Below, piece by piece: positions 38,170 through 49,648 of a stretch of 64,000 nucleotides of DNA. The DNA is from a virus (lineage: Duplodnaviria; Caudoviricetes), in IMG/VR virus record IMGVR_UViG_3300011862_000001, positions 172,910 to 236,909 of that record; one strand, given 5' to 3'. The position numbers and the translations under genes are program-made. Positions within the stretch are counted from its first letter, which is position 1. Every line of letters begins with the position of its first letter. The notes beneath the pieces are model-generated. The model was given only the letters and a program-made list of their open reading frames with translations. It ran no database searches and was not told the origin of the DNA.

Positions 38170-38817
38170 ATGTTACCGATTATTGCAGCAGCACTCGAGA
38201 AAACCATTGCCACCGGCGAAGAAATCTTTCTGGTGAATGCGCTGATTCATGCCGTGGGTGAACAGACCGGCTCTATTGTCTTTACCCAATCTCTGGTCGG
38301 GTTGGACTACGACCCGGTAGACGGTACGGTTGAGGTACCGACGATTTATCCGGGCGGGGCAACCGAATCGTGGGCAACTTTCAAAGCGAACATCATGGAG
38401 ACGATAGAGCATGTGTTAGTGGGTTTGGGGTACGGTGCCGCAGACGTCACCTTCGCGATGGGAGCGACTGACTGCGACGGCAGAACGCCACATGTCTACA
38501 CGCAAGAGGTGGTAAACCCAACCCACTACGGCATTCGTCTCAATATCCAAACCCCGGTGTCGACGCTCGTTGGTTTCCACCTCGACTTGGCGGTACTGGA
38601 AGGGCGTTACGTCTCAGTCGCCGCTGACTTACTGCCGAAGCCAACCGGGTGCACCGAAGATGAACCGGCGGTGTTGATGCGTAAGCACGAGATTGCCGCA
38701 CTGGTCTATCCGGCAGAGGTCGATGTGGATGCGCTGGAATCGGTCTCTATTGCCGCACTGGCCATTGGCTGGTCGGACACGGAAAGCTACAGCAAAACCT
38801 TACTGCTGCTTGCTTAA
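38170..38817 (+). CDS. Hypothetical protein
   Basis: AAGGAG RBS, 215 aa. Confidence 0.75.
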   Translation: MLPIIAAALEKTIATGEEIFLVNALIHAVGEQTGSIVFTQSLVGLDYDPVDGTVEVPTIYPGGATESWATFKANIMETIEHVLVGLGYGAADVTFAMGATDCDGRTPHVYTQEVVNPTHYGIRLNIQTPVSTLVGFHLDLAVLEGRYVSVAADLLPKPTGCTEDEPAVLMRKHEIAALVYPAEVDVDALESVSIAALAIGWSDTESYSKTLLLLA

Positions 38818-40039: not shown

Positions 40040-40615
40040 ATGTTGCTTTTCCAGAAATATTTCAGCGTCTCTGAGCTCGAACGTCTTCACAAAGAAGACC
40101 TGTTACCACGTGGTGATATACTGGCAACTGCCCGGCGCTATATGGACCACCCGAACAGTGTGCTTTTATTAGTACGCGATGAATCGAGCTGGGAAATCCG
40201 TGGTGTGTTTGTGGATTTACCGGAAGCAGAATTTCCGGCACACCGGCGTATCTATTGCATTTACGCAGGTATCGACGGTCTGCCTGTCAAACACTTCGTC
40301 GAGTATCTGCGTGCCAGTCATTTTGCAATGGCTGAGCTACACTTACCCGCGACCTGTTTGTTAGAGGACGAGGCGTTTAGCTGGACCGTGATGCGCCACC
40401 ATCGCCAAGCGGTCGGTGTGTTAAAAGCGGTGCAGTTAGTCGATGGCGATACGCTGCCACAGAAGCTGCGCAAAATTAAGAACAGTGACGATGTGACAAA
40501 AATGGAAATCCATATTGCCACACCTCTGCGCTTAAAAGAACGCGATATCACCCGTGAGCTGAACGCGCTCGGCTTTGCTACCCGCAAATACATTTATCAC
40601 CTCGTCCCGCAGTAG
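40040..40615 (+). CDS. Hypothetical protein
   Basis: AGGAG RBS, 191 aa. Confidence 0.75.
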   Translation: MLLFQKYFSVSELERLHKEDLLPRGDILATARRYMDHPNSVLLLVRDESSWEIRGVFVDLPEAEFPAHRRIYCIYAGIDGLPVKHFVEYLRASHFAMAELHLPATCLLEDEAFSWTVMRHHRQAVGVLKAVQLVDGDTLPQKLRKIKNSDDVTKMEIHIATPLRLKERDITRELNALGFATRKYIYHLVPQ

Positions 40616-47272: not shown

Positions 47273-47755
47273 ATGATGACCGCGATTGTTATCCTCGATG
47301 ATGCTTCCCAACTGACTTCAGAGCAGCAGAAGCATGTTCTTAATTTGCATTATTCTTTCTTGAACTTTCAACGTTCCGTGTTAGAAGCCAATCACCCGAT
47401 TCCGGACCTGCGCTTATCGCAGCTGTTTTCAGGTAACCGTATCGGTGTGGCGATGAACAACGGTACGCCGGTAGGCTATTGTATCTACCGGGTTATCGCG
47501 GGTGTTTTGAAAATTCGTTCGTTGTATGTAGTAGAGCAGTTCCGACGTAATGGCTTGATGTCTGATTTATTGAACCACATCCGTCAGAATACCACTTTCT
47601 GGCAGGCGCAACTGACAATCCACAAAAACTGTACTGCGGGTCGCGAGTTCTTCGCCAGCCGGGGCTATCAAGCCAAAGCAGACGGTGACTGGTTACAGTT
47701 GGTCTTCTTCGTTCCGGTGACCACAGAAGAATCACCGGCAGCACTGACGGCGTAA
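47273..47755 (+). CDS. GNAT-family acetyltransferase
   Basis: IRSLYVVEQFRRNGLMSDLL (motif A); N..GREFF..RGY (motif B). Confidence 0.8.
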   Translation: MMTAIVILDDASQLTSEQQKHVLNLHYSFLNFQRSVLEANHPIPDLRLSQLFSGNRIGVAMNNGTPVGYCIYRVIAGVLKIRSLYVVEQFRRNGLMSDLLNHIRQNTTFWQAQLTIHKNCTAGREFFASRGYQAKADGDWLQLVFFVPVTTEESPAALTA

Positions 47756-47914
47756 AAATACGCTCTCCTTATGTTTTCCATGTTCACTATGAGTGAATGT
47801 GTTTTAACCTGAGGAGAGCTTTTTATGTTTAACAGTCAAAATGTCGCCGGTTTACCCACTGCGGTCTGCTGGCAAGAATACCAACGTGCCATCCCTTTCT
47901 TAAAGGATACGCTA

Positions 47915-48148
47915 ATGGAAACCCCTAAACACCCTAACGTCGGTACAATCGGTCAGGTTGAGCACGCACAGAGTACGCTCAGTGCAAGCATCACTGGCGC
48001 GGCTACCCCGATGAGTGGTCCTAACCAATGGCTGTCGAAACATCAACAGCCGCTCAATGCCATGAATGCCACCGTTGCAGAGCTGATTGAAGATGCTGTG
48101 CTAAACGGTAAAGACTTCTATGTGGTGAAGATGAGTCCGGTGGTCTAA
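47915..48148 (+). CDS. Small protein with EF-Tu N-terminus-like segment
   Basis: AAGGA RBS before METPKHPNVGTIGQVEHAQSTLSASIT; alternative upstream start at 47825. Confidence 0.6.
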   Translation: METPKHPNVGTIGQVEHAQSTLSASITGAATPMSGPNQWLSKHQQPLNAMNATVAELIEDAVLNGKDFYVVKMSPVV

Positions 48149-48663
48149 TGGCAAACCACGTCGATTTCTTTGGTGAAGAACACACGGTTGAAGAACGTAA
48201 CCGGGTGGAATGGCTGATTATCGACAACCACCGCAAGACGCCTTATGATTACTTGCTTTGCGAAGAGCTTGGCCCACACGCCTGGCTCACGCCGACTGCA
48301 ATTCGTAAGGCCATCAAAGACCAGATGTGGAGTATCTCTCCTCGCGGGTTAGAGTTGGCACTCAAACTGGGTATTCCTGCTGTGGGTATCGACTGCTGGG
48401 ACGATGCGACGTTCAAGCACGATATCAAAGACAAAAACGGTATGGCCGTCGATTTTCGCCACAGCTTTCTGATGCGGGAAACGAAGATGGTCAAGACCGT
48501 GCAGGAATATCGGAAGAAGGGTCGCTTAGCAGTGATGCTGGGCGATACCCATTTGCGTACCGTTAAAACCAAAGAGTTGGGCGATGAATCTCTGGTGTGG
48601 TTGACCTTTCGCCGTGACCAAGATGTGACCATCTATCGCAGTCCGAAAAAAGAGATAGCATGA
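48148..48663 (+). CDS. Hypothetical protein, possibly TraB/ChaN(Tiki)-like fold
   Basis: FFGEEH, LLCEE, GIPAVGID, RE..M, VMLGDTHL. Confidence 0.55.
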   Translation: MANHVDFFGEEHTVEERNRVEWLIIDNHRKTPYDYLLCEELGPHAWLTPTAIRKAIKDQMWSISPRGLELALKLGIPAVGIDCWDDATFKHDIKDKNGMAVDFRHSFLMRETKMVKTVQEYRKKGRLAVMLGDTHLRTVKTKELGDESLVWLTFRRDQDVTIYRSPKKEIA

Positions 48664-48994: not shown

Positions 48995-49169
48995 AGTGGC
49001 TGACAGACTGAAAGAGTCATCGAAAGGGTACACGGTTGACCCACGCGAATGGTTTGGCACGGTGGGACGTCGTTACCCGCAGCGGACAGCCGTTAGCATT
49101 GCGGTGCGTATGGCACTGGTATGGCCAGTGGTTCCGATTACGCAGCCAGAGTACATCACGGTATGCTAA
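48987..49169 (+). CDS. Hypothetical protein
   Basis: GGAGG RBS before MGEVAD; overlaps neighbours. Confidence 0.5.
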   Translation: MGEVADRLKESSKGYTVDPREWFGTVGRRYPQRTAVSIAVRMALVWPVVPITQPEYITVC

Positions 49170-49648
49170 TCTTTCGCGATGAACGTCATGTGCAGGGTGA
49201 TATTTTCAATGCCGCAGACGCCTACAAAGTGGTGACAATCAACTGCGTAGGCGCAATGGGCAGGGGAATTGCCCTGTCTTGCAAAGAGCGTTTTCCTAGA
49301 ATCTATGAGGACTACCGCAAACGTTGCAGGAAAAATGAGATTATGGTGGGTCACGTTTACTTATACGAGGACGAGAAAATTATCCTGCTGCCCACCAAGG
49401 TACACTTTAAAGACCGTTCAGAAGTCGTATACGTCACCAAAGGTATAGATGCTTTGGCGCGTCTTGGAAACGACCTGAAAGCTGAGGTAGCACTCCCACC
49501 CCTCGGGATGGCTAACGGTTGGTTGCGCGCCCACGAGCGCTGCGAAATCTATCACCACCTGTTCAGGACACTGAACCCCGGAGAGCAACACTATCGGATA
49601 TACTTACCCACCACGTTATACACAGAAGCCAAAGCGGCACTATTGTAA
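49163..49648 (+). CDS. Macrodomain protein, DarG/TARG1-like ADP-ribosylhydrolase
   Basis: GDIF..VVTINCVGAMGRGIAL..KERFP; LPTK.H; ALPPLG..NG.L. Confidence 0.85.
   Translation: MLIFRDERHVQGDIFNAADAYKVVTINCVGAMGRGIALSCKERFPRIYEDYRKRCRKNEIMVGHVYLYEDEKIILLPTKVHFKDRSEVVYVTKGIDALARLGNDLKAEVALPPLGMANGWLRAHERCEIYHHLFRTLNPGEQHYRIYLPTTLYTEAKAALL

Follow-up and report, generated by a model that had tools for sequence, protein, structure and literature searches.

No bacterial protein is more abundant than elongation factor Tu (EF-Tu), which is known as a point of conflict between phages and defense systems. Gol, a peptide of the T4 capsid, binds to EF-Tu, and e14 Lit cuts EF-Tu between Gly59 and Ile60. 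The N-terminus of the factor can persist as a separate chain, such that the tryptic fragment comprising residues 1-44 remains bound to nicked EF-Tu. Timing of phage gene expression by RNA structure is exemplified by the T4 genes e, soc and 49, for which hairpins mask the ribosome-binding sites on early read-through transcripts. Phages may also encode pieces of host elongation factors, as seen for gp247 of Caulobacter phage Colossus, a truncated EF-Ts that was proposed to modulate translation (PMC3556154). The small jumbo-phage gene described here carries a degenerate copy of the first strand, P-loop and helix of EF-Tu behind a ribosome-binding site that is folded into a conserved hairpin.

The Small Gene and Its Phage

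The window, i.e. the whole stretch of DNA analyzed here, comprises the last 64 kb of a complete phage genome of 236,909 bp with direct terminal repeats. Among cultured phages, the Erwinia jumbo phages of Machinavirus are closest, with ~73% nucleotide identity over part of the region only, and Erskinevirus and the group of Salmonella phage SPN3US are related further off. The small gene (47825..48148, plus strand) encodes a protein of 107 aa (P0001), as judged from the list of open reading frames and from the orthologues, which align from residue 1. It belongs to phrog_12626, the profile of which it matches over its full length (E 2.3e-36 over residues 4-106), and also matches phrog_28329, which contains the short SPN3US-type relatives (E 9e-10). 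Sequence and fold place a Shine-Dalgarno (SD) sequence, GAGGAG (47811..47816, plus strand), 8 nt before the ATG and within the 3′ arm of the hairpin.

The first-pass annotation had described a protein of 77 aa that starts with the EF-Tu motif, whereas the real start is located at 47825 and the motif is internal. The 30 residues that had been omitted are kept by all orthologues and include the conserved C15, E18, Y19, R21, P24 and L26, while Met31, the start chosen before, is missing from several orthologues. Since the orthologues align from residue 1 and Met31 is not universal, the EF-Tu-like stretch occupies residues 27-60 of the 107-aa protein; the peptide quoted for positions 47915-47998 had been read correctly to the letter. 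Orthologues are restricted to jumbo phages of the SPN3US, Machina and Erskine types, among them phages of Salmonella and E. coli. Some related phages infect Erwinia amylovora, and a close relative, a 97%-identical variant, is found in a pig-gut metagenome. The family proteins are 69-110 aa long, with a new N-terminal helix (26 aa in the window) before the copy and a variable C-terminal part after it.

Resemblance to the N-Terminus of EF-Tu

The EF-Tu-like segment (residues 27-60; 47903..48004, plus strand) corresponds to EF-Tu residues 3-36, i.e. the N-terminal arm, strand β1, a degenerate P-loop and helix α1, as delimited by BLASTP, phmmer, hhalign, NCBIfam models and shuffled controls. Compared with EF-Tu of E. 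coli K-12, the sequence of which was taken from the genome record, the previously counted 15 identities in 26 ungapped positions were recovered, and a single BLASTP comparison aligned residues 27-57 with EF-Tu 3-33 at 16/31 identities (E 1e-8). The match is significant against shuffled sequences, which the first-pass annotation had proposed as a control: the Smith-Waterman score is 84, whereas 20,000 shuffles average 28.8 (sd 4.4) and peak at 64, and none of them reaches it. The Gumbel p-value is 5e-8 for the protein of the window and ranges from 5e-8 to 2e-3 for twelve relatives. Furthermore, phmmer against 177,635 PDB sequences returned 62 matches at E up to 10, the 60 listed being almost all EF-Tu (best E 1.2e-4), and four of the EF-Tu models in NCBIfam gave E values between 4e-5 and 4e-4, solely at model positions 3-38. 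With hhalign, the family profile is matched to EF-Tu at a probability of 94.9%, and the alignment comprises residues 29-61 and EF-Tu 5-37 alone, in agreement with the earlier statement that the remainder of the protein bears no relation to EF-Tu. A search of 1.84 billion proteins with the family profile retrieved many short EF-Tu N-terminal fragments (library-wide E <1e-3) and just a handful of true family members. Conversely, EF-Tu residues 1-45 searched against the six frames of the 236.9-kb genome hit a single place, the small gene (E 2e-6). The resemblance to the N-terminus of EF-Tu is real and far above chance. In the C-terminal half, an NKxD-like sequence (LNGKD) and some helix-like matches were considered as well and dismissed as chance, being non-collinear with a BLASTP E above 3.

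Loss of the GTPase Motifs and Predicted Structure

As had been noticed at first reading, the GKT of the P-loop is lost, and the window reads GQVEHAQS instead. The Walker A pattern GxxxxGK[ST] is absent, the Lys/Thr position being occupied by AQS (window), xRS, FDDT (SPN3US) or FGKP (short clade). In most long members the sequence is GxVDHxR[ST], with an arginine at the position of the Walker lysine and Ser/Thr next to it; the window, SPN3US and the short clade differ. The G3 (DxxG), G4 (NKxD) and G5 (SAx) motifs of a ~200-aa G domain are absent from the 107-aa protein, which is also too short to contain the β-barrel domains II and III of EF-Tu. Pfam GTP_EFTU (PF00009) does not match at E up to 1, neither in the protein nor genome-wide, and the NCBIfam EF-Tu models reach 19-22 bits, far below their cut-offs of 449-522. 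Without a conserved Walker Lys/Thr or any further G motif, the protein is, judged by its motifs, not a GTPase, and nucleotide binding is most likely absent. Orthologues are labeled “putative elongation factor Tu,” “putative translation elongation factor” or “putative GTPase” in GenBank; given that the protein is not a GTPase by its motifs, all three names are misleading, and the first and last should be corrected.

AlphaFold2 models of the window’s protein and of an orthologue with a deeper alignment both show three helices (~12-26, 51-60 and 84-93), while the motif stretch has a pLDDT <50 in both (mean pLDDT 57.5 and 57.2). Both models, built from shallow alignments of 13-18 sequences, are too poor for a fold search; the ESM Atlas model is likewise poor (pLDDT 0.41), and its structural neighbors are meaningless. 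At low confidence, the models suggest that the motif peptide is displayed between helices rather than buried in a G-domain-like core. The low pLDDT at the motif may, however, reflect the shallow alignment alone, and the strand could instead pair within an oligomer.

Such an oligomer is part of another explanation, namely a minimal β-(P-loop)-α protein that binds a phosphate-bearing ligand (nucleotide, signaling nucleotide or nucleic acid), for which the simple P-loop prototypes made in the laboratory are a parallel. The β1/loop/α1 unit is retained with its hydrophobic pattern across the family, the arginine of the most common long form takes the Walker Lys position, and a lone strand would need a pairing partner, which would also explain the poor monomer models. 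By contrast, conservation is lowest at the phosphate-binding residues (AQS, FDDT, FGKP), while the strand is invariant, and a ligand-binding P-loop protein appears improbable.

Conservation and Origin

The near-invariant core of the protein comprises H36-V45 (HxNVGTIGxV; 47930..47959, plus strand), as defined by the alignment, pN/pS and synonymous codon variation. Throughout the close family H36, N38-G43 and V45 do not vary, and in the wider family they hardly do. The first-pass annotation had regarded a motif that varies among orthologues as grounds for abandoning its idea; instead, HxNVGTIGxV is clearly kept. Indeed, pN/pS is 0.16 in the core and 0.41-0.57 in the other parts of the gene, although synonymous sites are saturated gene-wide (pS 0.68-0.78; core pS 0.68). 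The core codons vary synonymously among orthologues, and in the pig-gut variant synonymous changes alone are found within H36-H47. Taken together, the low pN/pS of the core, the saturated pS and the exclusively synonymous pig-gut changes indicate that selection acts on the peptide, and not on the DNA. No nucleotide-level match to E. coli genomes was found. In one wastewater run, 31-nt unitigs at a depth of 140 cover 47935-47965 with three mismatches on the motif; these probably come from bacterial tuf or other carriers of the motif rather than from the phage. Wastewater and aquatic runs with small shares were set aside as indicators of habitat.

Complementary parts of EF-Tu are kept in different clades. 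The Machina- and Erskine-type proteins retain a 12-residue stretch of EF-Tu completely (12/12), the metagenomic clade (78-81 aa proteins) retains GK.TLTA.I, and the protein of the window retains TL.A.IT, so that the members taken together match EF-Tu at 27/36 positions. This distribution would be expected from one old capture of a 5′ fragment of tuf followed by independent decay in each lineage, and not from convergence. The sequences are best explained by a domesticated fragment of bacterial tuf, captured in the lineage from which the SPN3US-, Machina- and Erskine-like jumbo phages descend. Among the origins suggested at first was a captured gene fragment, and the homology to EF-Tu 3-36 together with the complementary residue subsets speaks in its favor. 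Capture of a fusA-tufA junction was also considered and rejected, since hhalign of the family against the C-terminus of EF-G gave a probability of 0.2%. A search for longer or fused forms of the family found none, which is weak evidence.

That the captured gene persists as a relic without function, or resembles EF-Tu by chance, is highly improbable. Such a reading would be in line with the lack of a known function and with the copy in the window, in which the P-loop and GALGTLP are more degenerate than in any other member of its clade. However, chance is contradicted by the BLASTP, shuffling and genome-search statistics given above, and a relic is not expected to keep an invariant core across clades with saturated synonymous sites, nor a dedicated and conserved regulatory hairpin before the gene. 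Within residues 55-64 (47987-48016) the window has serine for the near-invariant Cys55 and GAATPMS for GALGTLP; in view of these departures, its protein is an atypical member of the family by sequence.

The conserved residues also bear on the idea that the fragment acts in trans, replacing the N-terminal piece of EF-Tu or of another GTPase and thereby complementing or poisoning the G domain. The best PDB matches are the separate N-terminal chains (37-45 aa) of nicked EF-Tu (5i4r_C and 2hcj_A), which are retained in the complex, and the structural glycine and polar residues N13, G15, T16 and G18 of EF-Tu are invariant in the family. Nevertheless, a free fragment would lose out to the tethered strand of EF-Tu, a factor that the phage itself requires, and a G domain without its first strand is found nowhere in the genome, so that action in trans is rated as very unlikely.

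Hairpin Over the Ribosome-Binding Site

The spacer of 69 nt before the small gene contains a conserved RNA hairpin of 58 nt (47762..47819, plus strand; MFE -29 kcal/mol, z -8.05), in the basal stem of which GCUCUCCU is paired with the Shine-Dalgarno sequence AGGAGAGC. The orthologous spacers fold alike in 7/7 cases tested (z -6.3 to -7.6), and the SD is masked in every clade. In an alignment of nine sequences, which is a small sample, 88.9% of the cells are paired, as compared with 38-54% when the partners are slid, and compensatory changes occur at four pairs, e.g. GCACUCC:GGAGUGC in SPN3US. The element is present once in the phage genome, which was searched as a whole, and no family of Rfam matches it.

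The stop codon of the upstream gene, which encodes a GNAT acetyltransferase, is located 6-10 nt 5′ of the stem and thus too far away for a terminating ribosome to free the SD; read-through transcripts are therefore expected not to yield the small protein. The promoter-like sequence TTTTTACG is found within the 3′ half of the hairpin in most orthologues, while the copy in the window is degenerate (TTTTAAC). TTTTTACG resembles a motif composed of a T-run, TAC, G/A, any nucleotide and CACC, which is found 19-59 nt before about ten other genes of the phage. A T-run with TAC(G/A)NCACC is present 31-53 nt before the genes starting at 40040, 44002, 54392 and 62213, and the SMC-like gene that heads the block of the small gene carries such a motif; possibly, it represents a middle-class promoter. 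A scan for sigma-70 promoters and simple terminators showed nothing notable near the small gene. A second motif, AGATATATATTAC, matches the published consensus of phiKZ-type promoters, TATATTAC (PMC7058600). The repeat TTTCAGATATATATTAC(C/T)T..GTGAGA, which is located 35-70 nt before the starts of the genes at 38170 and 40695 and at six places outside the window, also agrees with this consensus.

The arrangement suggests a gated expression like that of T4 e, soc and 49. In read-through RNA the hairpin would keep the ribosome-binding site locked, and the protein would be made only from RNA that was begun or cut inside the hairpin.

Genomic Neighborhood

In 4/4 clades the gene order is SMC-like ATPase, small membrane ORFs, GNAT, small gene, variable genes, DarG-like macrodomain and endolysin. 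The GNAT acetyltransferase (160 aa; 47273..47755, plus strand; Pfam Acetyltransf_7/_1, phrog_3810) is always the 5′ neighbor of the small gene, at a spacing of 66-70 nt. On the 3′ side, the start of a gene for a 171-aa protein (48148..48663, plus strand; phrog_14325) overlaps the stop of the small gene, and this gene is absent in SaP7 and SPFM16, phages of the SPN3US group. None of the small protein, the GNAT and the 171-aa neighbor is matched by PADLOC, and the last of these has no match in Pfam or NCBIfam either. Further downstream is a stand-alone DarG-like macrodomain (49121..49648, plus strand; NCBIfam antitoxin_DarG E 8e-32, PADLOC DarG E 1.5e-32) without a DarT nearby, a candidate for counter-defense against DarT-type ADP-ribosylation.

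The constant position of the GNAT allows for the possibility that the small protein is its partner, regulator or pseudo-substrate, such that the enzyme acts on the N-terminal region of EF-Tu and the small protein presents a look-alike. The host GNAT RimI acetylates the N-terminus of EF-Tu (PMC9079301), and one orthologue of the phage GNAT is annotated as a RimI-like enzyme. However, the GNAT scores 20 bits with NCBIfam rimI, the cut-off of which is 86, and has no sequence match in the PDB; by its sequence it is a generic GNAT that belongs neither to RimI nor to the toxin GNATs. The phages of the family are collinear throughout, so that the adjacency is not independent evidence, and the genes beside the EF-Tu copies of four unrelated phages (see below) include no match to a GNAT. 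In addition, the hairpin, with the stop codon of the GNAT ahead of its stem, insulates the small gene from translation of the GNAT, i.e. the two are not coupled. A functional link with the GNAT is accordingly considered doubtful, to a similar degree as a phosphate-binding role.

EF-Tu Fragments in Other Phages

A search of 50,697 phage records with EF-Tu residues 1-60 revealed small ORFs that begin with the EF-Tu N-terminus in unrelated phages, namely Aaphi23 and S1249 of Aggregatibacter, henriette, 1.244.A and 150E35-1 of Vibrio, and FLC9 of Burkholderia. The named ORFs are Aaphi23 ORF27, henriette VPDG_00052, FLC9 gp386, 1.244.A gp125 and 150E35-1 P0089, and most of the ORFs from unrelated phages have a C-terminal tail rich in arginine and lysine. 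Small ORFs of this kind, with the EF-Tu N-terminus at their start, are located at L007:1501-1680, L008:1489-1668, L009:1495-1818 and L010:1501-1902. The Arg/Lys-rich tails of the Vibrio and Burkholderia ORFs resemble each other (R.RR.Q..YK..W), and these ORFs may form one dispersed family. P0089 of Vibrio phage 150E35-1 (L011:1495-2214; 239 aa) carries the EF-Tu N-terminus with the P-loop and, about 115 residues on, the sequence ERGITI, which is similar to switch I of EF-Tu, the region cut by the Lit protease. A published functional study of SPN3US gp192, of phage EF-Tu N-terminal fragments or of a phage “putative elongation factor Tu” was searched for and not found; one published genome-map legend marks a “Tu” ORF in Aaphi23-like phages.

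Complete tuf genes of ~388-412 aa are present at the IMG/VR loci L029-L033, L043-L044, L046-L047 and L049-L060, the longer products given for some of them being due to over-extended start calls. Many of the tuf-bearing viral contigs are 190-530 kb long; these are huge phages with an EF-Tu gene of their own, or else host DNA that was mis-binned.

Proposed Function

That other phage scaffolds bear the same EF-Tu stretch argues for a benefit residing in the peptide itself. Tentatively, and with somewhat less than even confidence, we infer that the peptide imitates its EF-Tu counterpart toward a hypothetical factor that reads this segment. HxNVGTIGxV would be the working part, carried on the poorly ordered stretch between two helices, and would occupy a host (or phage) factor that recognizes the corresponding segment, most plausibly an enzyme or a quality-control factor that targets EF-Tu itself or its unfolded or nascent chain. 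Conservation is highest in NVGTIG (strand β1), which is buried in native EF-Tu, so that a factor reading NVGTIG is hypothetical. As the masked ribosome-binding site suggests restricted and timed synthesis and EF-Tu is extremely abundant, the small protein would act as a tight-binding pseudo-substrate or competitor, and not as a bulk decoy.

The first-pass annotation had already proposed a mimic or decoy of EF-Tu. Selection at the protein level makes mimicry plausible, but the targets that were named, i.e. Lit, Doc and EF-Ts, are disfavored. The similarity ends at EF-Tu residue 37, and the sites of Lit and Doc, Gly59-Ile60 and Thr382, respectively, lie outside the copied residues 3-36, which makes a substrate decoy for either of them unlikely. 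The main contact surfaces of EF-Ts on EF-Tu are also located outside the copied stretch.

The overlap with the plant immune epitope elf18, to which the same annotation had pointed, does not stand either. The segment overlaps the last third of the epitope, and some related phages infect Erwinia amylovora, both of which speak for the idea. Yet only 9/18 positions are identical, mostly in the C-terminal half, with two (K and T) among the first ten, whereas the N-terminal half of elf18, which is not kept, is needed for activation of EFR, and elf18 is N-terminally acetylated. Moreover, the segment is internal, starting at about residue 26-27 of a cytoplasmic protein, orthologues occur in Salmonella and E. 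coli phages, and the close relative stems from a pig-gut metagenome, so that mimicry of elf18 is hardly conceivable.

A broader form of the look-alike proposal, which is possible but unlikely, would regard the β1/P-loop peptide of EF-Tu as a portable module that many unrelated phages have grafted onto small early proteins in order to neutralize a host factor reading the peptide, e.g. an abortive-infection enzyme that inactivates EF-Tu. The family of the window would then be a jumbo-phage member, timed by its hairpin, of a class of target-derived pseudo-substrates, and the module would define a new class of anti-defense proteins. The recurrent, selected copy of the first 35 residues of EF-Tu on proteins that are not GTPases points to an unrecognized host factor, and finding this putative factor could reveal a new mechanism of defense or takeover. 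SPN3US gp192 and the orthologues of Erwinia phages, which are encoded by culturable phages, provide tractable models, with the hairpin as a regulatory handle.

Comparison With Known Systems

Bacterial EF-Tu (tufA/tufB; PF00009, TIGR00485) is homologous to the small protein within residues 3-36, i.e. in the arm, β1, the first half of G1/P-loop and α1. Unlike EF-Tu, the small protein has 107 aa, has lost the Walker Lys/Thr and lacks G2-G5 as well as domains II and III, while the 26-aa N-terminal helix is new and the C-terminal part unrelated. The N-terminal chains of trypsin-nicked EF-Tu (5i4r chain C and 2hcj chain A), the best matches in the PDB, represent the same stretch as a separate polypeptide. 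However, these chains are products of proteolysis that stay bound to the remainder, whereas the small protein is the product of an independent gene. The full-length tuf genes of phage contigs also show that phages acquire tuf, but encode a complete EF-Tu of 388-412 aa with intact G motifs. The ORFs of the unrelated phages share with the small gene the same EF-Tu stretch on a protein that is not a GTPase and a location amid small accessory genes; in contrast, their copy is placed at the very N-terminus, and outside of the copy kinship is not detectable.

Gp247 of Colossus is, like the small protein, a phage-encoded fragment of a host elongation factor, but it derives from another factor and keeps a recognizable functional subdomain, and its role is likewise only proposed. 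Gol of T4 and Lit resemble the proposed role in that a conflict between phage and host is centered on EF-Tu, although neither of them involves EF-Tu residues 3-36. With regard to expression, the small gene is similar to T4 e, soc and 49 in that the SD is paired in a stable hairpin just 5′ of the start codon and, in most orthologues, a promoter-like motif lies inside the hairpin. Here, by contrast, this motif is degenerate in the copy of the window, and the start sites are predictions. The conserved hairpin that masks the SD upstream of the small gene is new.
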